DNA of 63,722 nt, the filler included, from Aduncisulcus paluster (lineage: Eukaryota): the NCBI GenBank assembly GCA_024181965.1. It is 7 parts of 7 records of this genome, joined end to end, with 100 filler letters (N's around TTAATTAATTAA, not from the genome) between each part and the next. Parts side by side here need not be neighbours in the genome. Positions count along the whole stretch, not along the records: positions 47,083 to 51,962 come from BQXS01010996.1; 6 more parts are not named here. One strand, given 5' to 3'. The notes beneath the pieces are model-generated. The model was not told where the DNA came from. It ran no database searches and worked only from the letters and a program-made list of their open reading frames with translations. Position numbers and translations under genes: made by a program. Positions 8,601 through 51,962 of the stretch are shown here, piece after piece (within the stretch, counting starts at the first letter, position 1; every line of letters begins with the position of its first letter).

Positions 8601-11600
8601 TGGTGGTGTCAAAAGAAATTCCAAAAGAAGAAGAAAAGAAAACCTCAAAAAGTGAAGAAAAATGTTGTGAAATTGGAAAGACACAAAATGTCACTCAAGA
8701 AAAAGAGAAAGAAACATATGCAACAAGTATTGATGATTCTAGTTCTAATTTTAGTTCTTGTCATAATAACTCCAACACTGATGATTCTATTTTTAGAAGA
8801 TTGGTCGATGAAGAAATTCCCTCCTCTTCCTCTTCCTCTTCCTCTTCTTGTTGCTCTTCTTGTTGCTCTGATCAATCACATTCAGAGGTTCCAATATGGT
8901 TACAAAGAGTTGTATGTTTCCATGCTGCGAAAAACAGAACTCATATCCTTTCTCAATTTAGTGAATTAATTAAAGAGAAAGGAAAAGATGATTTTTCTGT
9001 TGTTTGTAAATCCCTTTCATGTCAATTTACTGATATATTACAGCCCAAAACTATATCTTCAGTAATTCATCATAATGGATTGTTTAAATTTGATGTTTCT
9101 CATCCTCAATCTAAAAATAGAAATTCACCACCTCTGAGCGAGACTCACAAAGAAAAATGCGATATTCGTTTTGAGAAAGAGGAGAACTCGTTGACAAAAT
9201 ATAGTCTAAAACAACCCGTCCATCATCAAATTGGTTCAAAGATCAGATTCTCTTCGTCTTCTTCTTCTTCTTCTTCTTCTTATTCTTCTTCTTTCGGCGT
9301 TCTTCAAGGAAATGATGAAATATTTGGAGCTTTAGAACCAATAGCTAAAGATAACAAGACCGAAGATCCTCCAGGTTTTGCAGAAACCCAAAGTCATTCG
9401 AGAAATGACTTTTATTCTGAAGATCTCCATGATAGATTAAGAAAGAGAGACAGAAGAATGTGTGGAACATATTTATCACATGCATTGAACTATGAAAATG
9501 GCAAGAAAGCAGAAGGAGAAGAGTCAAAACATAAGGATGTCACCTCCTCTTCCTCTTCTTCCTCTTCCTCTTCCTCTTCCTCTTCTTCTGCTTCAATTGG
9601 TCATTCGAGAAATGACTTTTATTCTGAAGATCTCCACATCAAATTGGTTCAAAGATCAGATTCTCTTCGTCTTCTTCTTCTTCTTCTTCTTCTTCTTATT
9701 CTTCTTCTTTCGGCGTTCTTCAAGGAAATGATGAAATATTTGGAGCTTTAGAACCAATAGCTAAAGATAACAAGACCGAAGATCCTCCAGGTTTTGCAGA
9801 AACCCAAAGTCATTCGAGAAATGACTTTTATTCTGAAGATCTCCATGATAGATTAAGAAAGAGAGACAGAAGAATGTGTGGAACATATTTATCACATGCA
9901 TTGAACTATGAAAATGGCAAGAAAGTCAAAATAGATTCCTTCGTCTTCTTCTTCTTCTTCTTCTTCTTCTTATTCTTCTTCTTTCGGCGTTCTTCAAGGA
10001 AATGATGAAATATTTGGAGCTTTAGAACCAATAGCTAAAGATAACAAGACCGAAGATCCTCCAGGTTTTGCAGAAACCCAAAGTCATTCGAGAAATGACT
10101 TTTATTCTGAAGATCTCCATGATAGATTAAGAAAGAGAGACAGAAGAATGTGTGGAACATATTTATCACATGCATTGAACTATGAAAATGGCAAGAAAGC
10201 AGAAGGAGAAGAGTCAAAACATAAGGATGTCACCTCCTCTTCCTCTTCTTCCTCTTCCTCTTCCTCTTCCTCTTCTTCTGCTTCAATTGGTCACACTCAC
10301 ATTCTGGCTTGGTATGTAAAACATGGCTCTCTTGATATTGATATGACATCTGAAGCAGTTGATTCCCGATCTCTTGTTCTTCCTCTCTACGATCGTCAAT
10401 GTATAAATTGGTGTATAGATCCAGAAAAAACACTGTCTCCTTTAGTTAGCTTAACGAAAGGAAACACTGCAGTCACATTTAGTGCAGGTAAAGGTGGATT
10501 GGTATTTTATTTCACCTCTCCTTTCTTCTTGAAAAAGAAGGAAGAGATGGAAGAGATGGAAGAGAAGAGAGAAGGAGAAAAGAAAAAGAAGAGGATGAAG
10601 AAGAAGAAGAAGAAAAAGAAGAAGGAAGATGATCCAAAGAATGATGGGAATTTGATTTGCAATGGTATATATATTTGTATTTCTCGATACACTGCTTCTC
10701 AACGGTTGAATATAACTTTTGGATACAATAATATTGTTTCATCTTCAGAATCAGATGATTCATTTGATGTTCAGAAAAAAAATGAAGTATATCAATATTA
10801 CACGAAGGAAACCTACACATGTTCATTCGAAAGGGAGAGGAAGATCCGCAATCCAGGTTCTTCTCCTTCTCCTTCTCCTTCTCAGAGTTCTATAAATAGA
10901 TCAATGTCTGATAGTGATGAAATTAAAGAGGAAAAGAAGGACAACAAGAATAAGGATGGAGGAGAATTCGATTGGTATTATATACCAATTCCATTTCAAC
11001 AATGTAGAGAAAGAAAGAAAGAAAAGATAATGTTTGAAGGACAAGAAAAAGAAGAAAAGAATCTCTCTTTTTATGGAGAAGATTCTTTAGTCGATTCCAT
11101 GGAAAAAAAGATATTGAAGTTTTGTTTTATATCTTCGAATTCTAAAAATAGCAATCGGACTATTGAGAATGAGAAACTAGGTGAAAATAGCGTTTCTACT
11201 CGTGATAAAATTTTAGATTTAGAAGGGAAAAAAGAAACAGAAGATGATTATTCAACAACAATTCCACAAAAGATGTTCATTGCTGATATAAGATTTTGTC
11301 AAAAAGAAGAGGAAAAGAAAGAAAAACAAGATAAACTCATGAAGAAAAGTGAAGAAGTGAAAGAGAAAGAAGAAGTGAAAGAGAAAGAAGAAGTGAAAGA
11401 GAAAGAAGAAGTGAAAGAGAAAGAAAAAGCAAGAGAGGAACAGATACAAATGGATATTGAAGACGCTTGCTCAGAGAAATCTATACCAATTGATTCATCG
11501 ATTGAAGGGTTAAAACAACAGATAAAAGGACTAAAAATAGAATATGAGCAAAAATTGGAATGTCAAAAACAATATTTTATAAAGGAAATTACAGAGCTTC

Positions 11601-12251: not shown

Positions 12252-15200
12252 TTATTTCTCGAATATCGTGAATTTGCCGTCTCTTTTTATCATTTCCATA
12301 CGGATTAGATCCTTGAATTGTTCATCGATATGTGATGGAGTGAGACAAACTTCTTTAGGGATTAGAGCAATACTTTCCTTGCATCGAGCAATGAACATGG
12401 AAGTCTGCATTCTCAATTCCTTCTTAATAATCCGCATAATAATACTTCTTGCAGCGAATTTAGGAGCTATTGGTGGTTCCTTCACTTGTTCTTCAACTTC
12501 AACTTCTTCAGACTCCTCAGACTCCTCCTCTTCTTCCCCACCAAGGGATGAAATGGAATCCATAGCAGTCAAATCAATCCTATCAATTAGTGGTGTCGCT
12601 CTAAAAATAGCATCACTGAGAACAATACCATCTCCTATTTTTGGAGTCATAAACCAAGGACGATGAGGAGTCGTTTTGATCAGACTCACACCATTAAACG
12701 TCAATTGTTGTAATAATGATTTAACTTCAGACTCAGAAACACACAACATAGCCCGTAGAGAACTTACTGTGGTGCAGCCAGAGGAGGAAAGTTTAGATAA
12801 GATCAGCCCAATATTTGTGGGACACTTAACAACGATTGAGTGTGGAGAAACAGGACAAGAAGCTGGGGAACGGAGAACACCGTAGATTATACCTGTTGAA
12901 GGAGACAAGTAGGGAACTTTATGCTCCGATTTTGCATCTTTTTGGTATCTTTCTTTCAAAGAATCAGCTATATGACGAACCTCAGGGGAAAATAGTTTAG
13001 AATCCTTTTGTACGGGGACATCTTCATTAAAGAAACCATTGAGAACAAGAGGCAGAATCATAGGTTCTGGAAGGTCAACAATGGGTGGCAATGTTCCCTT
13101 CAGACCATGTTTAGTCGTGTAAGTCGTAATTTCTCTGAATCTAAAGGAACGGGCACATACACAATCGTCAACAATTCTCTTCATTCGTTCGACACATTGA
13201 ATGGACAATATCATGTCGCAGGCTTTTATAAACTGAAGAACATTGTGCACACCAATAGAATATTCACGGGAGAGCTTAGCAGATGCTTGCTGAAGGCTAG
13301 AGAGTGAAGATTTATGCAGACTTTTCTCTTCTTTCGTTCTCTTCTTCCTCCTCATTACTTGAACCCTTGAAGAAAAGGCAGAAGAAGCTGCAGAAGAAGC
13401 TGCGGAAGAAGAAGAAGAAGAAGGCACTGATGGGACAGCAGCAGAAGAAGCAGTAGCAGTAGCAGTAGCAGCAGAAATGATAGTAGCGCGCGAAGAAGAG
13501 GAGGAACGGAAGACAGGTAGTGATGGATTAGGCATCATAGAGAAAGGATACTTCTTCAACAAAGCACAATCCTCGGAGGTTTGGGTCATCCTGATTATGG
13601 ATTTAGCTTGAAGATGAGCATGAATACGTTTTCGAAGAGAAGCATCTTCAGCGAAAATGGAATCAAGATAATCTGTTGAAGAATCATCAAGAGGGTTAGC
13701 ATCATGCTTTAGACCTTTTCTAGAAGGAACCAAATCAATTTCTTTTTCTTTTACAATCTTTTCTTTCTCTCCTTCTTCCTCTTTCTCCAAGAAGCTGCGG
13801 AAGAAGAAGAAGAAGAAGGCACTGATGGGACAGCAGCAGAAGAAGCAGTAGCAGTAGCAGTAGCAGCAGAAATGATAGTAGCGCGCGAAGAAGAGGAGGA
13901 ACGGAAGACAGGTAGTGATGGATTAGGCATCATAGAGAAAGGATACTTCTTCAACAAAGCACAATCCTCGGAGGTTTGGGTCATCCTGATTATGGATTTA
14001 GCTTGAAGATGAGCATGAATACGTTTTCGAAGAGAAGCATCTTCAGCGAAAATGGAATCAAGATAATCTGTTGAAGAATCATCAAGAGGGTTAGCATCAT
14101 GCTTTAGACCTTTTCTAGAAGGAACCAAATCAATTTCTTTTTCTTTTACAATCTTTTCTTTCTCTCCTTCTTCCTCTTTCTCTCCTTCTTCCTCTTTCTC
14201 TTCCTCTTCCTCTTTCTCTTCCTCTTCTTTTGTCTCCTTCAAGGCAATTCCTTCAGAGTCCCATATGGAACGCTTTTCACCCAATCCAGTGAGATAATTA
14301 AGAATTCCTCCACAAATAGCGCTCTCAACCTTGTCAATATCTGGATATCTTGCCGCCAAAGATAGGAATCTAGACATTTCATAAGGAGATTTTATGCAAT
14401 ACCTTCCCACCGCTGTTTTTAAAGAGGAGAGGAAAGAGAAATGGAGTAGCGTATCGCTAATCCAGTCTCGCATACAAGTAATCATCTTTCCGCCTTCTTC
14501 AGAGCCAATACAAGCCGTTACAGCGATTGACAAAGCTTGACCAAGTTGAAGAGCACGATCATTCATTGTAATAAGAGAATCGAAGGATTTGTTGGATTCA
14601 AGGGCCTTTTGGAAACAAGCAGAAATCAAATTATTAGTGGAGTCCTTGATTAACTTCACACCAAACTCAATCATGGCCATTAAAGAGACGATACGACGAG
14701 AATCATATAAATATATGGGAATTAGCTTCTTTTTACCGAAAAATAACAAATTAACACGATCTTGGTAGAGAATTAACAACGAGGCAGAATGGTCGGCGAC
14801 CATTTCTTTGTATAAAATGGAAAACAGAATATTCTGAATATTTGATCTCATTGAAGTGATAGAAAGGATTCTTTTCTCAATTTCAATCAATTCAAATATG
14901 TAATCAAGACGATCAATCGGGTTTTTAGTGACTTCAAGGCATTTTTGAAGTTCCATCTTATGAAACTCGATATAATTGGTTGCGGCCTCTAAATAATGCT
15001 GATGTAAGAGCTCTTGCCCTTCTTTAGGCAAATGGAAGCAAAAACTGGCAAGAGAAGCAAGAGATGACAGGTTGGGCATCTCGGTTGCCCGTTCTTTGGT
15101 AAATTCGGATAAAACGTCGCGAAGTGCTTCACGAATAGAAAAGATCTCTTTAATAAACGCTTCTATGATAGTTTTATACCCACATTTATCAGCCACCCAT

Positions 15201-21802: not shown

Positions 21803-24800
21803 ATGATTTTCTGTCGTATTTCAAATTTAATGAAACAATTATTCAATATTTTTTATATTTCAATATTTATTTATGCCTTTTTTGGATTAATATCACACGT
21901 TTTTACAGCTTCATGTTCTGCTGGATATTACTGTAATGAGCCTGCTAGTTCATCAACCTATCATGAAGTTGAATGTGAAAGAGGATCTTACAGAACGTCT
22001 GGCGATTCTATGGATTCATGTATTGAGTGTCAACCCGATGAAAAATGTATTAAAACGAATAATCCTGTATCTTGTGGTGCTGGATACTATGTATCATGGG
22101 ATAAGCTATCTTGTAAATCGTGTGAAAGTGGTTTTGTATGCCCGGATGGATCTTATGAAAAACGGGAGAAATGTATCGTTGGAACATATCCTAACACAGG
22201 AACCCAGACTTGTGATCCTTGTCCTCCCGGAACCTATGGTACCATTGATTCAAGCTCTGGCGCTGAGTGTATTTCTTGTCCCGATGGGACCTATGCCCCC
22301 AATGCTCATACTATAGGACAATGTCTCACTGTTCCAGAAGGATATCTATATAATGACGAATCCTCGGTGACAGCTTGTGACCTTGGATCATATACATTAG
22401 CAGGATCAAAAAGTGGTTCGCCTGCATCATGTACAGATGCTCCTGCCGGAACAAAGCTCACTACCAATAGATATACTGATATTACTCCCTGTGCATATGG
22501 AACCTATAATGATTCAACGGGATCAACAATGTGCTACCAATGTCCAGCCGGCAAAAAATGTCATGACCCAGCGGCCACTCCTTCGTCCTGTTCAATAGGT
22601 GAATACTCTCTCCTTGGAGATGCTGTGTGTCACCCATGCCCAGCTGGTTTCTACTGTACGGACCCATCCCTTGCTCCAGTTCCATGTGGTGTTGGTAAAT
22701 ATGGGTATAAATTATTCGCTGAAGATATCTCCGATTGTAAAGATTGCCCTACTGGAATGTTTTGTCCACCTGGGACTTTCTTGCTCGAAAACAACGCACA
22801 GCAAGGTAATCTTCACCTTGTCGAGCCTGGGTCATATATTTCTTCTGGCGCTTCAGTGCGTGTGATGTGTCCAGAAAACTTTTATTTTAAAGGCACAGAC
22901 GCTTCTCAATCTTCCGACTGTGTTGCCTGTCCCGATGGTTTTTTCTGTCTTGGTGGTATTTCTGAACCAGTTCTTTGTCCCCCTGGGTTCTACTGTGACT
23001 GTGGAGGCAGTTCTGATGCTTCTTGTACTGTTTCTGGGGAAGTTGGACGCAAACGATGCACCCAGCCTTCTGGAAGTGACTATTCTTTCATGGATAATCC
23101 TACATTTACGTATCCCCACTCAGGATTGACTTCTGAAGCCGGGTGTTTATTACAACCCGATGGTAATGTTGGAACTGATGCCACGATCTCTTTCAGGAAA
23201 TGTGACAGACGTTCTTATTACGATCCGACAACAAACTCCTGTGTATGGTGTCCTGCAGGGTTCCTGTGCCCCAGATACGGTGGTCTATGGACAGATCAAC
23301 CATGTCTCCCAGGTCAATACTGTGACGCTGGACATGTCGACAATTCTACCCTTCTCCATAGTTGTGGAGCAGGGAAAATACTCAATTCATTCTACGGAGA
23401 GACCAGTGCGGACTGTATTGACTGTCCTGCCGGTTACTACTGTCCCAATTCAGGAACATCTTCGATGCCCCAGTATCTTAGCACAATCGTTCCATGCCCT
23501 CCTGGATATTTCTGTCCAAGTGGGAGTTCAAGCACTCAAGATTGTCCCGTGGGAACGTATAATCAATATTACAATGCCTCAAGCGAAGATGATTGCACTG
23601 CTTGTGCTGTTGGGTATATGTGTCCTCAGAATAGTGTGAGCCCCTATGGTTGGACTCTGGTTGAGATAGAGTCTTCGATCGGAACTATCCTTGAACCCAA
23701 GTACTGTACAGCTGGGTACTATTGTCCGGCTGGGTCATACGATGATCCTGCAGGGAAAGAAAGTTGTACCTATGGAACATATGGAGCCCTTGAGGGAGCA
23801 GGGAGTAGCCTGGACTGTGAACAGTGTCCCATTGGTCATAAATGTAATACCCTCAATATGACTGATCCTATTGAGTGTCTCCAAGGAACCTATCAAGATT
23901 CCCTCGGTGAACAGTCATGTTTGGAGTGTCCTGCTGGATCCTACTGCCCAGATGATGGCATGTCCGAGCATTACCTCTGTCCTGCTGGTGAGTATAGCAG
24001 TGCAGGAGCCACTTCATGTTCCACTTGCGACAAGGGTCATTATTGTCCATTAGATGGGACCACTTCAACAGAACATACAGCAAACAAGTGTCCAGCTGGA
24101 TATCTCTGTGTAGACGGATCCGCTGGTCTTGATACTTTCCCGACATTGAAGGATCATGCCTGTCCAACAGGGAATTTCTGTGTAGAAGCAACCACTGCTC
24201 CCGAAGAGTGTCCAGCCGGAAAATACCGTCCATTTGTCGGTGCCGGTTCCAGTGACGATTGTTACGACTGCCCCGCCGGATATTACTGTGAAGCTGGGAG
24301 TTCTGAGACGACTGGAGAGTGTGATATTGGCTACTACTGTGTTGCAGGTTCTTCAGTCTCCAATCCCGCTGCCGGTATCTGTGGTAAAGGTACATACAAT
24401 CCCAATACTGGGGCACCTAGTTCTAGCTATTGTTATCCCTGCCCTGCAGGAACTACATGCCAGAGCTACGGCATGAGTGTTCCTGATTCATGTCCTGTTG
24501 GTCATTATTGTGTTGTTCGGACGACTGATGATGGGTCTCTGTGTCCGGCCGGTACTTACGATCGAGCCCAGCTTGGTGGCATGGGTAGTGTTGGTGACTG
24601 CGAGTCTTGTCCACCGGGAGAGTATTGTTCTGGGGCATCTGGAACACACCATGCCGATTGCGGAGAAGGATATTATTGTTCTGGAGGATCGAAAGAATAT
24701 CAACCGTCTACAGTGCAGGTATACGGAGGACCTTGTCCACAAGGGTATTATTGTCCTGGAGGATCGGCTACCCCCATTCCCTGCCCGGTTGGTAAATATG

Positions 24801-27800
24801 GCAATTCTGAGCGTCTCACCCAAGAGTCGAGCTGTTTGAGTTGTCCCTCATCGTACTACTGTCCTATTGGAGGCATGGATGATGGATATGTGTATAAATG
24901 CAATGCAGGATGTTATTGTACCGGAGGAAGTGATGTTGCTTGTCAATACATGGTGGACAAAGGATATTACTCAACCGAGGGATCCAACAGTCAATCTAAC
25001 TGTGGCCCTGGGACATATGCTCCCGAGAAAGGAATGGATGAGTGTCTGACGTGTCCTGCTGGTTACTATTGTCCCGACAGTGTCAATATTACTCCCACCG
25101 AGTGTGGTGACGGCCGTGTTTGTGCTGCTGGCAGTTCTGATAATAATACAAAGTGCTCTGCCGGGAAAGTAGGAATTACCCCAACAGCTGAGAATGATGA
25201 TGATTGTGCCACGTGTCCAGCTGGAAAATACTGCCCATCCGGTGTGACCCTTGCAAACATTTCTGGGACCAATTATGACTGCATTTCTGGATATATCTGT
25301 TATGGTGGTAATTCGTCTTCCATTGGTGACGGTAAATGTCCGGCTGGGTATTACTGTCCATCAGGAACCTCCTTACCCATTCCATGCGCTGTAGGTACCT
25401 TCAATGATACAATTGGTGGTTCGAATAGCAACGCATGCACCACTTGTACTGCGACATATTATTGTTCATCTCCAGCTATGTCCTCAGCCCCCACACTGAA
25501 GTGTTCTGATGGGTATGTCTGTGAGGAAGGCCAAGTTGTTCCAAACCCTAATGGAACAGTCGCCAGTGGGGGATATGTATGTCCCGAGGGATTCATGTGC
25601 ACTGAAGGAGTCAAGTCTCCTTGTCACAATGGGTTTTACCAGGACAGTGAAGGCCAGTCTTCATGCCTGACCTGTCCCGCTGGTTATTACTGTCCTTCTG
25701 ACGCTACCAACGGTATTATTTCTCCAACTCCCTGTGACGAAGGATATTATTGTCAATCTGGTTCTGCTTCGATGCAAGAATGTCCTGTTGGAACCTACGG
25801 GAAGACAGCATATTTGACTGCTGAATCTGAATGTTCTGACTGTTTGGCAGGGAAATATTGTCCAAATACACACATGACATTCACAGACGTTGATGCCTTG
25901 GATTGTAGAGCGGGATATATGTGTGTGACTGGATGTTCGAATGATACTTGTTCGACTGGAATCGCAACAAAAGAAGGTGGATCCTGTCCTGCTGGTTCGT
26001 ATTGTATTGCTGGATCCTCGGCTGGTACGCCCTGTCCAATGGGAACGTACAATCCATTGACAGGGAGTGTTGATTCTAATGCATGTATCTCCTGCCAAGA
26101 AGGCTATTATTGTCCGATCACTGGTATGATCATTGACACTGACTTCATATGCCCTGCTGGATATGTCTGTAACTCAAGATGTACGACAGCCAATCCCGTT
26201 GATGGTAACTCATGTGCTGCGAGCGGAACGTGCACAACTGAAGAAGGGTCAATCTGTCCCGTTGGATATGCATGTCCTGAAGGAACCACTATGTCTGGTC
26301 TTCAAGCTTTCAAGTGCTCTGGCGACAGTCTCTATTCCCCAAGTACTGGTCTGAGTTCATGTTTAGATTGTCCTTCTGGGTATTACTGTGCGTATGATTC
26401 CAAAACCATCTGTGAAGTTGGGAATTACTGTCAATTGGGAGTCAAGACCCAGTGTTCACCCGGAACATACGCGAATAACACTGGAACGCGTGAGTGTTTA
26501 CCCTGTCCGGCTGGATATTACTGTCCAGGCTATGAAGTATCAAATCCAACTGATTGTCCCGTCGGTAATTACTGTATCCAAGGTAGTGATTCTCCAACCG
26601 TTTGTCCGATTGGAACGTATAACCCGAACACTCTGAGCAAGAGTATTGGAGCCTGCTCCTTCTGTACAAAGGGTCATTACTGTCCCACTTCTGGATTGAG
26701 TGCCGTTGACTCTGGATTGACAATTCTTGGAGGATATTTCTGTGAGTATGGATGTGCTGACAACATGGGAGCTGGTCGCAGTGGTGCTGTACTTTTCGAA
26801 GACTACAATGGTGGAGAATGTCCTATTGGATATTATTGTCCAGCTGCTGACACTGACAGTCCCATCGCCTGTGAGGAAGGAACATACCAGACAACTTCAA
26901 ACCAAACATCATGCATCCAATGTGACAATGGACATTACTGCGCTGGAATAGCCAATATCGCTGTCAGTGGTGTATGTGAACCTGGATTTAAGTGTGAGGA
27001 TGGCGCAATCACTCCAACGCCAACTGAAGCCAGTGATGGTGGAAGCCTCTGTTCCAAGGGTCATTATTGTCCCAATGCTGACGGAATATTCACCGAGCAG
27101 CCCTGTCCAATTGGAACCTATGGAGATCGAGAGGGATTGTCCGAGTGTATGCCTTGTCCATCTGGATATTCCTGTGAGGCCGAGGCCACCGAGACTCCAA
27201 CTAAGTGTGTTTCTGGTCATTATTGTATTGGGTATAATTCATATGGTGCTGCTACGTATAGTGATCCAGTTGCTTGTCCTGTTGGAACATATGGTGCAGA
27301 CAAGACAGGGATGACTGCTGTCGACCAATGTGAAGAGTGTCCACCTGGTCTTGCATGTACTGTCGAAGGAATCGAAGGAAGATCAGACCTCCAGATTAGT
27401 GAATGTGAAGCTGGATATTACTGTGGTGGAGGGAGTATCAGCACACAACCCTCAGATCCCCTTGACACTAATAATGGTATCTGTCCTGCTGGAACTTACT
27501 GTGATGCTGCATCTGATCACCCAATTCCCTGTAGTCGAGGCACATTCGCTGCTCTCGAGAAGAACAATGGTGGTTTGGGTTGTATTTCCTGCACTGCTGG
27601 TCATTATTGTGCAGATGAAGGTATGGATGATGTCAGTGGTGAGTGCTCTGAAGGCTATTATTGTGATGCTTCGGCCGAGGCCACATCCGCCACTCCAAAG
27701 GAATATATATGTCCTGTTGGTTCCATGTGTGAGAAGGCCACTGTTGATCACGTCGTCTGTCCTGCTGGTTACTACACTGATGAAGTTGGACAGAGTGAGT

Positions 27801-28298
27801 GCACAGAGTGCCCTGAAGGCTATTTTTGTACAGGTGGATCTCACCGTGTGTCCTGTCCTGCAGGGCACTATTGTGCTGCTGGCTGTAGCTCTCCAGTTAA
27901 ATGCCCTGATGGATATTATAGCAATGGCACTACTGGACTCATTGATGAGGACCAGTGTCTCCCTTGTCCCGTGGGTCATTACTGTGTGTTTGAAGAAGAT
28001 GTCGCCAGTGAACCCGATTGTTGGGATGAGTCTGATGATTATTGTGTGTCTGTGACGACTGATATCTGTGACGCAGGATACATCTGTCGTTCAGCTTCCT
28101 ATACCCCCACTCCTGGTAAGTTGGATGACCCTGTGCTTTCCTTGATGCCAGCAACTATCGGAGAACCATGCCCAATCGGATTCATCTGCAGTGCCGGATG
28201 TGATACCCCTACATTCTGTACAACAACGAACACTTGGACATTCACAGTTGGATGTTCTTCTGAAGACGACTGTCAGCCTTGCCAGAGTGGATTCATAT
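21803..28298 (+). CDS. Giant secreted/surface cysteine-rich protein with GCC2/GCC3 (ephrin-receptor-like) repeats, 3'-partial
   Basis: More than 2160 aa open to the scaffold end. Signal-peptide-like N-terminus (likely start MKQLFN at 21830). Dozens of CPxG[YF]YC and CxxGTY motifs. Confidence 0.9.
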
Positions 28299-28398
28299 NN
28301 NNNNNNNNNNNNNNNNNNNNNNNNNNNNNNNNNNNNNNNNNNTTAATTAATTAANNNNNNNNNNNNNNNNNNNNNNNNNNNNNNNNNNNNNNNNNNNN
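28299..28398. other. Artificial scaffold linker
   Basis: N44-TTAATTAATTAA-N44. Confidence 0.98.
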
Positions 28399-28996
28399 CG
28401 AATACATTGAGCTGATGCTTCTATTCTCCTCCAATTTCCCCCAATCTTTCCATCTTCGCCTTCTCTTCCTCCTTCTCTCGTCGCCCCATACGAGTCCGCT
28501 TGAACAAACCCGTGTTAAGCAGGACATCATGTCGACATTTGTCCATCTCACCACATCCTACCGTGTTGACGAGTCCTCTTTCGAGCTTGCGTCCCTGGAG
28601 GAATGTCTTCTCAAGGACATGTCACACTCCTTTCTGTCCTCGTCATATGTACGTGTGCTCCGCTGTCTGCTCGCATCCACTCACTTCTCCTTCTCCTCCC
28701 ACCGTCCGTCCATGGAAGCACATGCTGCGCTCGCACGTGTGATGCTTGTGACCGGTGTGTCTCAGCCCATTGCCACGACCTTGTTGGACATGATCGAGAG
28801 ATTGTCCTCGAAGGCACACCGAGACTCTGTGGCTGCGCGGTATGAAAGTCAAGAAAAGTCGCCGCTGCTTGTTCTCTGGGAAGCATTGAGGAAAGAGGTT
28901 GAGCGAGTGATGGCTGATCTTGGTGACGAGGGAGTGAAGAAGGAAGTCGAGCAGTGGCTACACTGTGTCAAACAAGCCGTTGAGAAACGGTTGTAG
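28399..28996 (+). CDS. Hypothetical alpha-helical protein, C-terminal fragment, multicopy
   Basis: Open from the scaffold start to TAG at 28996. The same protein is encoded on the minus strand at 39910-40394 and 40772-41522. Confidence 0.7.
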
Positions 28997-29000
28997 CCAT

Positions 29001-29099
29001 CTGTCGACCGTCTGGCACCCTTCTGGCACCCTTCTGGCACCCTTCTGGCACCCTTCTGGCATCCTTCTGGCACCCGTCTGGCACCCGTCTGGCAACCGG
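29001..29099 (+). repeat. 11-bp minisatellite (TCTGGCACCCT)n immediately after the stop codon
   Basis: About 9 units here versus 5 units in each right-hand copy (about 39855-39907 and 40717-40769). Confidence 0.95.
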
Positions 29100-29775
29100 C
29101 TGTCCATTGTAAGGATGAGAGAGACAGAGTGTGTGTTTGTATGGAATGTATAAAAGCATTATTAAATCTGCCCATATCATATCATATTGTCATCCTTTGA
29201 GTCCACCAGAATAGACATCATGAAATGGCACAAGGACGTGTGCTGGTGGTCGGAAACAATATGATTTATTTTGGGGTGAGAAACTAAAGGGCTAAAAATA
29301 TCCCAATAAGCCTTATGCAATAAGCTGTCTTCGATCTAGATAGAGAATTTATTTGGGTTATCAAATATGATATCGTTCTTTAAAAGAACTTCTTTTTTAG
29401 TATATTTCTTTTCAATTTGAGGGCAATCAAATACCCATAATACAAATTATTTGCTTCTTATTTGAAGCAAAACCCTCATGATTGGTTGTAATACATCAGC
29501 ATTCCTGAGAACCCAGAATATTCATAGAGAGTGTTCAAAGTAAATATTGAATCATAATTCTGAGATTGAAGTGAACAAAAAAAAAAAAAAAAAAAGAATG
29601 ATAAATATTACCAATGAATTATTGGCATGCCAAAAGGGAAAAATAAAAATAAAATTCTGGAAATACCAAAGAATTAGGAAATGGAATAAAAACAGAAATA
29701 AAGTAAAATATACTTTATAATAACAATAATAAAAAAATTGAAATGCACATCCAAACCCCTCCCAAAAGTCACAGA

Positions 29776-39561: not shown

Positions 39562-39655
39562 CTATTAATTAATTATTAATTACATACCTTATTGATCTGG
39601 ATTAGCATATTTATAATATTCATTGAATATTATTCAATTAGAGTAAAACAATGCT

Positions 39656-40394
39656 ATTTTTAGCCCTTTAGTTTCTCACCCCAAAATAAATCATATTGTT
39701 TCCGACCACCAGCACACGTCCTTGTGCCATTTCATGATGTCTATTCTGGTGGACTCAAAGGATGACAATATGATATGGGCAGATTTAATAATGCTTTTAT
39801 ACATTCCATACAAACACACACTCTGTCTCTCTCATCCTTACAATGGACAGCCGGTTGTCAGAAGGGTGCCAGAAGGGTGCCAGAAGGGTGCCAGAAGGGT
39901 GCCAGATGGCTACAACCGTTTCTCAACGGCTTGTTTGACACAGTGTAGCCACTGCTCGACTTCCTTCTTCACTCCCTCGTCACCAAGATCAGCCATCACT
40001 CGCTCAACCTCTTTCCTCAATGCTTCCCAGAGAACAAGCAGTGGCGACTTTTCTTGACTTTCATACCGCGCAGCCACAGAGTCTCGGTGTGCCTTCGAGG
40101 ACAATCTCTCGATCATGTCCAACAAGGTCGTGGCAATGGGCTGAGACACACCGGTCACAAGCATCACACGTGCGAGCGCAGCATGTGCTTCCATGGACGG
40201 ACGGTGGGAGGAGAAGGAGAAGTGAGTGGATGCGAGCAGACAGCGGAGCACACGTACATATGACGAGGACAGAAAGGAGTGTGACATGTCCTTGAGAAGA
40301 CATTCCTCCAGGGACGCAAGCTCGAAAGAGGACTCGTCAACACGGTAGGATGTGGTGAGATGGACAAATGTCGACATGATGTCCTGCTTAACAC
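39656..40394 (-). repeat. Dispersed repeat, inner right copy (inverted relative to the 28399 copy)
   Basis: Reverse complement of about 28512-29300. It ends at the 20-N gap and encodes the same protein C-terminus (39910-40377). Confidence 0.93.
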
Positions 40395-40414: not shown

Positions 40415-41522
40415 TACTAAAAAAGAAGTTCTTTTAAAGAACGATATCATATTTGATAACCCAAATAAATTCTCTATCTAGATCGAAGACAGCTTATTGC
40501 ATAAGGCTTATTGGGATATTTTTAGCCCTTTAGTTTCTCACCCCAAAATAAATCATATTGTTTCCGACCACCAGCACACGTCCTTGTGCCATTTCATGAT
40601 GTCTATTCTGGTGGACTCAAAGGATGACAATATGATATGGGCAGATTTAATAATGCTTTTATACATTCCATACAAACACACACTCTGTCTCTCTCATCCT
40701 TACAATGGACAGCCGGTTGTCAGAAGGGTGCCAGAAGGGTGCCAGAAGGGTGCCAGAAGGGTGCCAGATGGCTACAACCGTTTCTCAACGGCTTGTTTGA
40801 CACAGTGTAGCCACTGCTCGACTTCCTTCTTCACTCCCTCGTCACCAAGATCAGCCATCACTCGCTCAACCTCTTTCCTCAATGCTTCCCAGAGAACAAG
40901 CAGTGGCGACTTTTCTTGACTTTCATACCGCGCAGCCACAGAGTCTCGGTGTGCCTTCGAGGACAATCTCTCGATCATGTCCAACAAGGTCGTGGCAATG
41001 GGCTGAGACACACCGGTCACAAGCATCACACGTGCGAGCGCAGCATGTGCTTCCATGGACGGACGGTGGGAGGAGAAGGAGAAGTGAGTGGATGCGAGCA
41101 GACAGCGGAGCACACGTACATATGACGAGGACAGAAAGGAGTGTGACATGTCCTTGAGAAGACATTCCTCCAGGGACGCAAGCTCGAAAGAGGACTCGTC
41201 AACACGGTAGGATGTGGTGAGATGGACAAATGTCGACATGATGTCCTGCTTAACACGGGTTTGTTCAAGCGGACTCGTATGGGGCGACGAGAGAAGGAGG
41301 AAGAGAAGGCGAAGATGGAAAGATTGGGGGAAATTGGAGGAGAATAGAAGCATCAGCTCAATGTATTCGTTGAACAACGCAGTGTCTTCCATTTGAAGGG
41401 ATTTGACAAGCGAGTCAAAGAAGAAGACATTGCTGGAAAAGGGAGTTATCATGGAACAGATGTATTCAAGAAGCTCGAAGATAATCGGTACAGAAACACT
41501 CCTCGCAAAACAGAATTCAAAC
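40415..41522 (-). repeat. Dispersed repeat, outer right copy, carrying a 5'-partial CDS at 40772-41522
   Basis: Reverse complement of 28399-29402 plus 153 further coding bases. The frame is open to the scaffold end (FEFCFARSVSVPIIFELLEYICSMITP...). Confidence 0.93.
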
Positions 41523-47082: not shown

Positions 47083-47825
47083 CTGTAAGCCTGGACAAGG
47101 GTTCACAAACAGAAGAACAAGCTGGAATAAAGCTTCGAACAAAGTTCACCATACCCAAAAGACATTTCACATCTCGTTTACTGGAAGGGGTTCGGAGGTT
47201 CTCGATAGAGGAGATACGTCCAGGAGCAATCTGTTTTCCAGCACCGGAGATGGTATAACCAAGAAATTCTACTTCCTCAAATCCCAGGAAACATTTCTCA
47301 AAGTTGATTGACAATCCCTTCTTAGCACATCTGTCAAGTATAATCTCAAGATTATATAAGAATTCCTCTTCAGAACTACCAACGACCAAGATATCGTCCA
47401 TGTATATGACACATCTCTTCTCTTCCATCAAATCTCCAAATACAGATTGCATAATGTACTGAAAATGCGCGGGGGCATTCATAAGGCCAAAGGGCATACA
47501 AGTAAACTGAAAAATGCCGTCCGGGGTTCTGAAGGCTGTGAAGAGTTGGCAGTCAGGGTCGATCGGGATGAGGTGAAATCCATTTGAGAAATCAAGGGTA
47601 CCAAAAACAGTTCTTCCTTCTAGAGAGTCAAGGATTTCGTCTATTCTCGGCAGGGGGAATTGGAATGGGACAGTGATAGAATTTAGGACCCGATAATCAA
47701 TGCAGAGACGTTTCTTTCCGTTTTTCTTAGGGACAATCACTACGGGAGAATAAAAGGGACTCATGCTTGGTACAATGAGCCTTGCTTCCTTCAAGCGCTT
47801 GATTTCATCCTTCAAGAATCCTCTG
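47083..47825 (-). mobile_element. Ty3/Gypsy LTR-retrotransposon pol fragment (reverse transcriptase), interrupted by a second element
   Basis: SPFYSPVVIVPKKNGKKRLCIDYRVLN, PLPRIDEIL, MPFGLMNAPAHFQ, YMDDILV, VEFLGY. The coding frame (..RGFLKDEI) is cut at 47825/47826. Confidence 0.95.
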
Positions 47826-47920
47826 TGTTGAAGTTTCTAAAGAATCTATTTATAGAACTCCACCATCTCTTCTCATATAACAGTAAATTTGTTAACGTGT
47901 TCACTTTCGAAAGGTCAACA
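47826..47920 (+). repeat. Candidate 5' LTR, 95 bp, TGTTGA...TCAACA
   Basis: Starts exactly at the junction with the interrupted RT gene. The ends are inverted repeats matching at 14 of 17 positions. The gag ATG follows 15 nt later. The 3' LTR is not in the window. Confidence 0.75.
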
Positions 47921-47935
47921 ATATATATATTGAGT

Positions 47936-50900
47936 ATGAAGGACACTAAAACCCATACTACTGGTGCCAAAAAACTCCGTGAAAAGGAGTTACCAGCGCC
48001 ATATCTTGAAACGCTCGATTCTGCAACTTGGGAGAGATTTTTAGGTGAATTCCATCATTATAAATCTCTAGGAGGTCGAAGGAAATGGCCCACCTTATGT
48101 TCGGCCGCGGCTTTACGATTAATCGCTATCATCTCGAAAGTCCCTAACTTCACCACCGTAAAGAACCGAGCTCTCGCGAAGAAACGCGTCTCTGCTATCT
48201 ACAAAGGCAGTTCTCCCCAATCCATATCTGATCAGTTAAAAGATACCTTGATGGCAGCTGAACTATCCTTAGATGCAATCTCCGAGTACATCACCGCGTT
48301 TGATGCCAAAAGAAGTGTCGACCCTGCTGCTCTGGAGAAAAAGACCTTTGTAAATTCTTTTATTAGTGGTCTATTCCCATCTCGTTTGAGAGTACGGGTA
48401 AGAACGGCTGTTGGTCCGGACAGTATCGATCTGGAAGAGGCTATTCGACAATCTCTCTCCCATGGGGGAACTTTGACCCAAATCCTGAAGGAAGGATCCT
48501 TAGTTCAACACCAGATTGAAGCAGAGAAGTCTCGCCGGGAAAGGAGCCTTGGCATAACGGAGAAGAAAAGCTCCGTGAGTAAGCCGCCCCATAAGAAAGA
48601 GTTCGGGGGAAAAAGAAGATTTACATCAAGTTCCACGGGAAAGAACAAACAAAATACCAACCCACGATCTGACAAATTACACCAGAGACAACCCATCAAG
48701 AAGCCTTCCTTTCTAAAAGGAGTTTTCTGCAGAAAGTGCAAGAAAGAAGGACATAAGGTCTTTAACTGTCCCCTAGAGAGTAAAGGAGACTCTAGATACT
48801 TATGCGAATTATCTTCTGCCTTTTCCTCTTCAGCTCCCTACGTTCTCGCGACCCTCAAGAATTCAGATGGATTACTAGTGACTGTGCCCTGTCTGCTAGA
48901 TACGGGGGCCACTAGCTCTGTAATCTCCATGGATATGATCGATAAACTAGCTGTCAACGTATCTAAATCGGACATCCCCAACATTACCCTTGCTGATGGG
49001 AGTGAAATACCCGTTTTGGGATCTGCAGACATCGAAATCATCCTTCCGGGGGTTGATGGATCAAGCTTACGGTTCACCGAGCAATGTCTTATAATCAAAA
49101 TGCACAACAAAAAACAAGCGGAGCTGATCGTCGGAAAAGACAGGGTTCTTCACGATAGTTTGTTGGATTGGGTCCAAGATTCAAACATGGAAGAAAGTTG
49201 TTTGTTAGAGGACGATTTAGGTCTGGACGTAGTATCTCCATTTGACTCTGACGAAGGGAATTGGACCTGCGAGGTCCCCGAGTTAAGAGCGAGTATCACA
49301 ATTTTATTAGATGCTTATTTGGAAAAAATCAACAAATCAGAACCAGCAAAAACATCGGATTTTGAGCTAGAGTTCCCAAAAGGAGGTAAACCGATATTCT
49401 CTAAGGTTAGAAGAATCCCTTTCCACTTACAGACCGAAGTTAAAAACCAATTGGACGAGTTACAGAAATCAGAGTTTATTATTCCGTCAAAAAGCGATTT
49501 CGCAGCACCTATTGTTCTTGCTCCAAAACCAAATGGAGGTCTACGACTTTGTTGTGATTACACGAGATTAAATAGGGCAACCCCCAGCGATTTGTACCCT
49601 TTGCCCAGACAAGATACATTATTCGCAGCTCTCGCTGGAAAAAAGTATTTCGGAGCACTCGATCTGAAGAACGGTTACTTTAATATCAAAGTTTCGGAAA
49701 AAACAAGACCCTTGACTGCATTTATCACACCGTGGGGATTGTTTGAATGGAATAGGATGCCGTTTGGTTTAAAATCGGCCCCGGCTCATTTTCAAAGGTG
49801 TATCAACGGAATTTTCAAAGACCTCATGCCTCATTTCTGTCTAGTTTATTTGGACGACATTCTTGTTTTTGGTGAGAACCAAGACGACTTTATCAACAAT
49901 CTTTCAAAGGTTTTGGATAGACTATCCGAGTTTAACCTATGTCTCAACTTAGACAAATGTAAAATCGGAATGAAGAATGTTCGCTACTTAGGTTTTATTA
50001 TATCGGAACAAGGCAGGTCTATTGATCCAAAGAGACTAGAAAATATGAGGAATATCCGGCCACCCGAAAATTTAAAGGAAGTACAGAGCCTAGTGGGGAA
50101 ATTAAATTTTCTCAGAGAGTTCATACCGGATTATTCAAGGACAGCGGAACCTTTAACCCGAGTAATGAAGAAAGGGTACACTAAATCGTGTTGGGGACCC
50201 GAACAATCTTCGGCCTGGGAGAGTTTATTATCTTCCTTGGATAAGAAATTATCTTTAGAACATCCAACACAAGAAGGAACTTTTATTCTTCGGACAGACG
50301 CTTCGACAGTTGGAATAGGAGGAATCCTTCTCCAAAGAGCCACAAGTGGAAAAGAAAAGCTGATAAATCTTTTCTCGCGGAAGTTTAATAAGACAGAAAC
50401 CCGTTGGAGCACTATAGAACAGGAAGCCTTCGGTATCTATTATGGAATAATGTCGAACAGGTTTTATTTGCTTGGAAAAGCTTTTCAGGTGGAAACAGAT
50501 CACCGAAACCTTCAGTACATCTTCAAAAGCGAAGTCCCGAAACTTGTGCGTTGGAGAATGATGATGGCTCCTTTTACTTATCATATCAAACACATTCCTG
50601 GTTCAGAGAACCAAACAGCTGATTTTCTTTCGCGTATAGAATTAAAAGACGATTATCCGTCTAAAACAAGGAAAATTAGTACACTAAAAGCTCTTGATAC
50701 GACTACAAAAGATCCAGAGAAAGATGTTCTGCTCAAACAAATACATTTAGAACTCGGTCATGCTTCGGCAGGGCTAGTTGTAAAAGTTCTCCGCGACAGA
50801 GGGATAAATTGGACCGGTATGTATAAAGACGCTGAAAGAGTCCTTAAACCGTGCATTTTCTGCAAAAAGACACAAAAGGGAAGACGGATAAAAACAAATG

Positions 50901-51962
50901 GTCACTTGAAAACTTCCTATGTGTTCGAAGAAGTGTCTGTAGATACGGTAGGACCATTACCAACAGATGAAGAAGGTTACAAACATTTGTTAGTCGCTAT
51001 AGACGGGTTTTCCAGATTCACAGTGATAATACCGCTGAAAACATTAACGGCCGATGAAATAGCACGAGCGTTATTTATTAATATCTTCGCTGTTTTCGGA
51101 GCTCCAACAAGTTTAAGATCGGACGGAGGCTTCACTAGCGCCGTAGTGAAGGAATTATGCAGGCTCTGCAAGACCAAAATGATCGTAACATTACCTTACA
51201 ATCATGAGGAAAATGGTTTGGTTGAACGACAAAATAGAGAGATTCGACGTTTAATCAGACTTTATTTCTTGGAAAGAGACGTAAGATTTTATACCGAGGA
51301 AGCAGCAGCAATGGTGGCAGTATTAAACTCACGGATTCATGGCTCGACTGGCTATTCCCCATTCTCAGCTGTTTTTGGTTCCAAGAGACGTCTAACCACA
51401 ATTCCTCCAGAGCCTCATGCAGACTTTACTTCCGATAAAAAACAAATAGAACGACTAGACTCATCTTTAGAGTTAATCCACAAATGTATTTCGGAGAATC
51501 AAGAAGTAACTCATCAAAAAAGGGATAAACAGAACGGGGAAGAAGAAAGTTTCAATGTGGGAGAAAAAGTATTGGTTGTCCCAGCCAAAACCCCGAGGAA
51601 ACATCTTCCAGTCCTGAGTGGACCTTTTGTGATCAAGGAGAAATTAGCTGGCTCAAAATTTTTATTGACACCATTAAATGGTGGCCAAGACAGAACAATA
51701 CCACTCAGAAGACTCAAAAAATGCGATACCTCGGCCCCTCTTGAAGTTTTAAAAAAGGTTGCGGCCAGAGATGATGATGAATATGTTGTCGCTTTTATTG
51801 TCAGACACCGTTTTGGAGTTAAAAAACCGATCGAATTCAGACTAAGATGGCTAGATTATGACGAATCTGAAGACACTTGGGCCAGTTTCGACGAGGTAAA
51901 AGATCTAGATAAACTTGACACTTATCTCGAATCAAAACCGAACCTCAAAAGAAAAATGGAAC
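47936..51962 (+). CDS. Gag-Pol polyprotein
   Basis: Zinc knuckle CRKCKKEGHKVFNC; protease LLDTGA; RT YLDD; RNase H TDAS/EQEA/TDH/ADFLSR; integrase HLELGH...CIFC, VDTVGP, RSDGG, NGLVERQN, GPF; chromodomain YVVAFIVRHR...FRLRWLDYDESEDTW. Confidence 0.96.

Follow-up and report, generated by a model that had tools for sequence, protein, structure and literature searches.

A perfect palindrome at the primer-binding position of short-LTR Gypsy elements in Aduncisulcus paluster

Priming is where LTR elements and retroviruses become dependent on their host, and two routes are established for LTR elements, priming by a tRNA and the fold-back of Tf1. PMC6317226 recognises self-priming by a stretch of 10 bp or more in the 5' LTR that is complementary to a site lying 0-5 bp after the LTR. 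The Tf1/sushi elements and Tcn1 carry such a stretch (PMC6317226, PMC4600332). The Aduncisulcus elements that we describe resemble them in having Gypsy domain order, in being apparently tRNA-independent and in having the element's own RNA as the likely primer, but the complement is at most 6 nt long in 31 family LTRs and their site is complementary to itself. A novel kind of self-priming has been suggested for the Skipper chromoviruses of dictyostelids, which are also protist Gypsy elements with a chromodomain, no TGG and no LTR complement; they differ in having a polypyrimidine stretch instead of a palindrome, and Skipper-1 has two ORFs (PMC5006619).

The closest precedent is the palindromic site of the fungal GalEa Ty1/Copia elements, the Conserved Hairpin Site (CHSeq1). 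CHSeq1 is a 10-nt palindrome after the 5' LTR, and two of its forms account for 85% of families; 12-41 bp further on lies CHSeq2, which is complementary to it, and the site has had no accepted model since 2017 (PMC5445492). Both groups lack a tRNA site, and in both a palindrome that takes in the final A of the 5' LTR follows directly on it. GalEa elements, however, are Copia elements with a 10-nt site and CHSeq2, whereas the Aduncisulcus elements are Gypsy elements with sites of 12-20 nt in many covarying forms and no CHSeq2 (PMC5445492). Bivalve TRIMs have been compared with the GalEa site (PMC6934838). We found no account of a palindromic primer site in Gypsy elements in the literature searched, with most subscription journals and repeat-database reports outside its scope.

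The element, its LTR and its setting

The window, by which we mean the whole 63,722-nt stretch of DNA that was analysed, consists of contigs joined by N spacers from assembly GCA_024181965.1 of Aduncisulcus paluster, which we take to be a fornicate. The element described here lies on one contig, BQXS01010996.1 (positions 47083-51962, 4880 bases), with these features:

47084..47828, minus strand: RT segment of element A, a second multi-copy Gypsy element and the insertion target (open frame, RVT_1 E 7.9e-38).
47824..47828, plus strand: putative 5-bp target-site duplication, TGTGT (empty site and 3' junction).
47829..47920, plus strand: 5' LTR, 92 bp, TG...CA (right end from the branch at 47920; left end from the target-site duplication and the family alignment).
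47845..47856, plus strand: conserved TATA-like box TCTATTTATAGA, putative promoter (invariant columns in the family alignment).
47882..47887, plus strand: poly(A)-signal-like AGTAAA, AATAAA in most relatives (putative role, from the usual LTR layout in PMC3601003).
47904..47913, plus strand: U5 palindrome or hairpin CTTTCGAAAG, variable in the family and the source of the apparent inverted ends.
47919..47932, plus strand: perfect palindrome of 14 nt in the place of a primer-binding site (core of 10 nt at 47921-47930, with the LTR's CA before it and TG after it).
47936..51961, plus strand: single gag-pol ORF (translation and Pfam; truncated by the contig end).

What the contig shows is the 5' part of a Ty3/Gypsy retrotransposon that has a single ORF and a chromodomain and that entered another Gypsy element with a 5-bp duplication of the target. 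The gag-pol frame is open for 1342 aa from the ATG at 47936, and the contig stops at 51962 within the ORF. Pfam finds Gag with a zinc knuckle, protease, RT, RNase H, integrase and a chromodomain, which is Gypsy and not Copia order; the chromodomain follows the integrase (residues 1283-1332, E 1.9e-5) and scores 24.9 bits against a cut-off of 25.1. Ty3 RT is the closest relative with a solved structure (E 1e-69). The nearest proteins are from A. paluster itself, followed at about 40% identity by those of Dysnectes, Andalucia, Carpediemonas and environmental sequences; the viral contigs searched held no relative. A broken near-copy of the RT-RNase H region (L004/L005), with stops and frameshifts, is 94% identical to 49641-50910. 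Neither the LTR start nor the ORF end recurs in the assembly, and no 3' LTR or 3' continuation of this copy was found there. One Logan contig of run X1, a public run, extends 1434 nt past the contig end at 51962; a further run, X2, which is RNA only by guess, covers little.

The original prediction was a 95-bp LTR starting at 47826, and its right end stands. One of the Logan contigs of run X1 passes from position 47920 straight into the interrupted element A, with the loose end beginning TGTGTGCATG. The site therefore has a second LTR copy, which is either a 3' LTR or the allele of a solo LTR, and the right end is fixed exactly. A second contig of the same run begins at 47891, 30 nt ahead of the branch. 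Run X1 is not independent of the assembly, because it is probably from the same sample. The left end most likely moves to 47829. The 3' flank opens with TGTGT, which places TGTGT on both sides of the element, and therefore the duplication is 5 bp and the LTR starts at 47829; a start at 47826 leaves a duplication of 2 bp. Element A is uninterrupted in five other loci, where the empty site reads CCTC-TGTGT-GCATG, and its contig depth is about tenfold higher. Target-site duplications in six complete relatives are 5 bp in four, 4 bp in one and unclear in one. A related solo LTR (L092) starts with TGAAG between two copies of AAAGT, and with a start at 47829 the spacing from TG to the TATA-like box is 16 nt, identical in L022 and L056. 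The LTR is thus most likely 92 bp long (47829-47920), with a left end that is only inferred because the PPT/3' LTR junction of the element is unseen. A 3' LTR starting TGAAG after a purine tract would give the 92-bp reading, and one starting TGTTGAAG the 95-bp reading. The 95-mer, proposed as a probe for further copies, occurs once in the assembly.

Element A has other visitors. The 3' LTR of a related element joins its RT near 47522 (seen in L008), and a run contig departs from the RT at 47675. The 5' flanks of 12 of 31 family LTRs match retroelement proteins, which hints at preferential nested insertion. Elsewhere the window has near-identical direct repeats of at least 300 nt (39655-39954 with 40517-40816, 13394-13693 with 13789-14088, and 9251-10240). 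Similar repeats often border short N gaps in other contigs of the genome, and those in the window may be assembly artefacts. A 2183-aa ORF with many cysteine-rich repeat units occupies 21803-28354, and an 11-nt tandem array (28986-29106) lies immediately past the gene that follows it.

We read the LTR as a minimal 92-bp promoter and poly(A) module, and the position of the TATA-like box makes a transcription start near 47872-47880 plausible. The 17-bp inverted ends originally described do match at 14 of 17 positions (47826-47842 against the reverse complement of 47904-47920), but they are not an LTR feature. The match borrows three target bases, because TGTGT is the target-site duplication and the LTR starts at 47829. 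With the 92-bp LTR the ends match in register at 6 of 17 positions. What is left is a resemblance of 11 of 14, 3 nt out of register, which 11 of 5000 shuffles reach and which pairs a family U3 motif with the local U5 palindrome at 47904-47913; across 30 LTRs, U5 palindromes range from 2 to 12 nt. In 17 other related LTR families the ends match at only 3-10 of 17 positions, in agreement with the short inverted repeats of roughly 7 bp described for LTRs (PMC3601003). We rejected the 17-bp inverted ends, since they are 6 of 17 in register and not conserved among these families, and we treat the residual resemblance as peculiar to a single copy. We also rejected the suggested LTR-wide hairpin, whose fold has no advantage over shuffled sequence (z of -0.36 with the 95-mer and +0.47 with the 92-mer).

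Short LTRs are a trait of the family. The genome has 447 matches to a pattern that combines the TATA-like box with the poly(A)-like signal, where the control gives 5. In six relatives with both LTRs on one contig the LTRs are 78, 87, 78, 87, 95 and 96 bp, and a purine tract precedes the 3' LTR in all six. In a seventh relative the repeat measures at least 270 bp and is accompanied by the same kind of palindromic site, which means that the palindrome does not depend on a tiny LTR. The silkworm Mag LTR is 77 bp, so a Gypsy LTR under 100 bp is rare but probably not unique. Mean training LTR lengths of Gypsy clades are 174-695 bp (PMC3601003), compared with 78-96 bp in the six complete Aduncisulcus coding elements, and fish Mag and CsRN1 LTRs are 200-300 bp (PMC11117352). 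The short-LTR lineages Mag and CsRN1 share the TG...TATA...AATAAA...CA layout with the Aduncisulcus elements (PMC3601003, PMC11117352). At 78-96 bp these LTRs come close to the minimum for a module that serves as promoter, poly(A) signal and integration end. Programs that look for LTRs above a higher length limit, or that demand a tRNA site, may overlook such elements.

The original description of a highly compacted element fits the 5' end, with its LTR of less than 100 bp and 15-nt leader, but not the 3' side: non-coding DNA there is 948-2179 nt long in the three closest complete relatives and 39-307 nt in three others. Units like tRNAs (A box, B box, T run) lie near the 3' ends of relatives (L066:5690-5745, L072:5915-5975, L078:640-715), with further examples at L109, L230, L221, L097, L105 and L224. 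The motif has 11 matches in 30 loci, all below Rfam thresholds; nine are near the element's 3' end, six of them antisense and three sense.

The primer-binding position

The leader between the LTR end and the ATG of the gag-pol frame is, as originally noted, only 15 nt long (47921-47935) and contains no TGG; its 3'-anchored tRNA match is 1 nt, and such matches reach at most 2 nt in 31 family LTRs. The host tRNA set was made of 44 distinct calls from most of 62 Rfam hits, with 63 of 1712 candidates scored. Against internal halves of the 41 intron-free tRNAs, a set without Glu, His, Phe and Pro, the best match of the leader is 7 nt, which 39 of 300 shuffled leaders equal. An 8-nt match to 'tRNA-Arg(tct)' was rejected, as it lies in a spurious 1276-nt intron call. 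Over the whole genome a search pattern for TGG-type sites gave 28 matches against 7 in controls. We agree that priming is likely tRNA-independent, given that the LTR is shorter than 100 bp, that the leader is very short and that our searches found no tRNA primer site. A complement of at least 10 bp in the LTR, as in Tf1/sushi elements, was found neither in the element nor in 31 family LTRs; the longest strict complement between LTR and leader has 5 nt in this element and no more than 6 nt (8 if G-U pairs are counted) across the family.

What proves to be conserved is the palindromic (AT)5 that had been mentioned only as an aside. The element carries CAATATATATATTG at its LTR end, a perfect palindrome. 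Among 27 gag relatives with at least 60 nt upstream, from the best 30 of 108 gag matches, 24 have a palindrome of at least 12 nt. Shuffled sequences reach that length in 328 of 5400 cases, and among 26 host start regions only 1 does so (three further regions were dropped for N). For one relative, L029, a flanking 16-mer was counted, and its own 12-mer at the LTR end is also present. The three without a palindrome are L050, which has one central T-T mismatch, and L047 and L059, which are apparently interrupted by other sequence. In complete relatives the palindrome follows the 5' LTR in six of six and the 3' LTR in none of six, and 20 of 28 LTR clusters have one of at least 12 nt in at least one copy. 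Our claim rests on these six elements and 20 clusters because the automatic labels of 5', 3' and solo LTRs are imperfect (L039 was mislabelled, three clusters were mis-trimmed and four without a CA end were skipped).

Family palindromes are 12-20 nt long, and while the sequence varies, self-complementarity holds to the centre. The core takes the forms ATATATATAT, ATAATATTAT, ATATTAATAT, ATAGTACTAT, GTATTAATAC and ATTATATAAT, besides 12-14-nt forms centred on GATC; several GATC-centred palindromes are also found upstream of Gypsy-like Gag. The central four bases are self-complementary in 29 of 30 LTRs, in six forms within the genome. Of 27 distinct forms, 19 have their symmetry axis 5 nt past the LTR end, and in the others the distance is 6-8 nt. 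Most forms have A-T as the sixth pair counted from the axis, which brings the LTR's last A into the palindrome, and the seventh (C-G) is present in only 17 of 27; these pair counts are partly circular because the rows were picked by their palindrome. The first ATG lies 11-23 nt after the palindrome start or LTR end in 23 of 31 LTRs, and some members have leaders of 26-108 nt. In L218 and L233 the palindrome reaches 20 and 18 nt, with the bases past the core mirroring the last bases of the LTR.

Near the 3' end of eight complete elements (six from this genome, two from metagenomes) we found no shared second copy of the palindrome; the best strict matches are 9-11 of 14 and scattered. In the element of the window, the 60 nt that follow the palindrome contain no CHSeq2-like complement better than 5 of 10, and Rfam gave nothing at gathering level in seven relatives. 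These comparisons show, at the level of sequence, a primer-binding site replaced by a perfect palindrome of 12-14 nt centred 5 nt after the LTR.

The palindrome also occurs outside this genome. We kept 80 loci from at least 413 metagenome relatives and scored site types among them only where the 5' LTR end could be fixed. The palindrome is present in L242, L297 and L306, where two copies fix the LTR end, and probable in L255 and L265; L242 has a seventh form of the central four bases. L272, L302, L304 and L309 have a TGG site. L246, beside L297 in the tree, has a hairpin with a 5-nt loop and no perfect palindrome at its probable LTR end (860-885). In a FastTree of 79 RT-RNase H sequences, with weak deep nodes and no named chromovirus included, palindromic elements occur in several lineages, which fall outside a clade (support 0.983) of TGG elements and animal and fungal matches.

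Routes of priming

A changing sequence that stays self-complementary to its centre favours an RNA-RNA dimer. We propose that two genomic RNAs would anneal antiparallel via the palindrome, and that the RNase H domain would nick one of the strands close to the core's 3' edge; a work cited in PMC4600332 reportedly describes such cleavage of an RNA duplex by the RNase H of Tf1. The freed 3' end would then prime minus-strand synthesis across the U5 and R of the partner RNA. Copying the primer would restore the site, because primer and site share one sequence. Judging from sequence and folding, we put the chance that such a dimer primes reverse transcription at about even. For the 14-mer, no hairpin is predicted and the predicted dimer has -12.6 kcal/mol. 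When the putative 5' RNA is folded as a dimer, the minimum-energy structure pairs through the core for 24 of 30 LTRs; for the element in the window it uses the U5 palindrome and not the core. Duplexes of AU-only cores are weak (-6.8 to -12.6 kcal/mol). We counted in favour of dimer priming that no tRNA or LTR complement was found, and against it the looped hairpin of L246, the central T-T mismatch of L050, the seventh pair in only 17 of 27 forms and the gaps in the tRNA set.

An unlikely alternative is Tf1-like priming in trans, in which a shorter gag-pol transcript would start at the palindrome and its first 10-12 nt would be cut off and prime the full-length RNA. This demands the same self-complementarity to the centre. 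The palindrome does begin at the LTR end with the first ATG 11-23 nt on in 23 of 31 LTRs. Giardia-like hosts have short 5' leaders and AT-rich initiators, and an AT-rich palindrome just ahead of the ATG would fit this, but the GC-containing cores and the 26-108-nt leaders of some members suit an initiator less well.

It is similarly improbable that the palindrome serves solely for dimerisation or packaging, in the manner of the retroviral dimer initiation site, with a host RNA or protein as the primer. Retroviral dimerisation is driven by palindromes (PMC5445492) and Ty3 initiation complexes dimerise via tRNA palindromes (PMC5371799). However, the palindrome is exactly at the primer position with a fixed axis, no other site is left before the ATG, and a host primer would need to match many differing cores.

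We think it rather more doubtful that the RNA is cut after the palindrome and that a small hairpin snaps back to prime on its own U5. GalEa elements have been drawn as hairpins (PMC5445492), and L246 with its loop and L050 with its central mismatch would suit this reading. Against it, no stable hairpin is predicted for the 14-mer, and the covariation at the centre, where 29 of 30 LTRs are self-complementary, speaks against a hairpin because a hairpin loop would not need a self-complementary centre.

There is only a slight chance that the palindrome acts as double-stranded DNA, a symmetric CA-N10-TG that integrase or another nuclease cuts and that sets the right end, with priming elsewhere, for example at the tRNA-like unit near the 3' end. 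Integrase cleaves palindromic LTR junctions, many members have the CA...TG symmetry, and tRNA-like units do lie near the 3' end of several relatives. But the G of TG is often missing, and the unit was not found within the complete relatives L216, L217 and L218 and occurs in either orientation elsewhere.

The pairing originally suggested, Tf1-type self-priming by CTCATATA (47872-47879) with TATATTGAG in the leader, is the least probable and largely refuted by its lack of conservation: although it is present in the minimum-energy fold of 47872-47945 (z -0.82) and the TATA-like box makes a start near 47872-47880 plausible, its duplex has only -3.0 kcal/mol and begins 5 nt from the LTR end, a 9-nt one-bulge match arises in 150 of 2000 shuffles and is absent from relatives, the LTR complement is at most 6 nt in 31 family LTRs, and the core pairs with the 5' end over at least 6 nt in only 1 of 30 folds.

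A possible route of priming without a host primer

The tiny LTR and the missing tRNA site of the original prediction hold, the inverted ends and the Tf1 pairing fall, and what deserves attention is the palindromic primer site. Because the 5' module is only about 60 nt of RNA, dimer priming is directly testable with short RNAs. The Aduncisulcus family supplies what the GalEa elements lack, which is many covarying palindromes and no hairpin partner. We lean slightly towards the view that a widespread group of protist Gypsy elements primes by a third route, in which two packaged RNAs (or a genomic RNA and a shorter transcript) pair via the palindrome and one of them is cut. If this is true, the GalEa Copia elements of fungi would have arrived at a comparable solution on their own.
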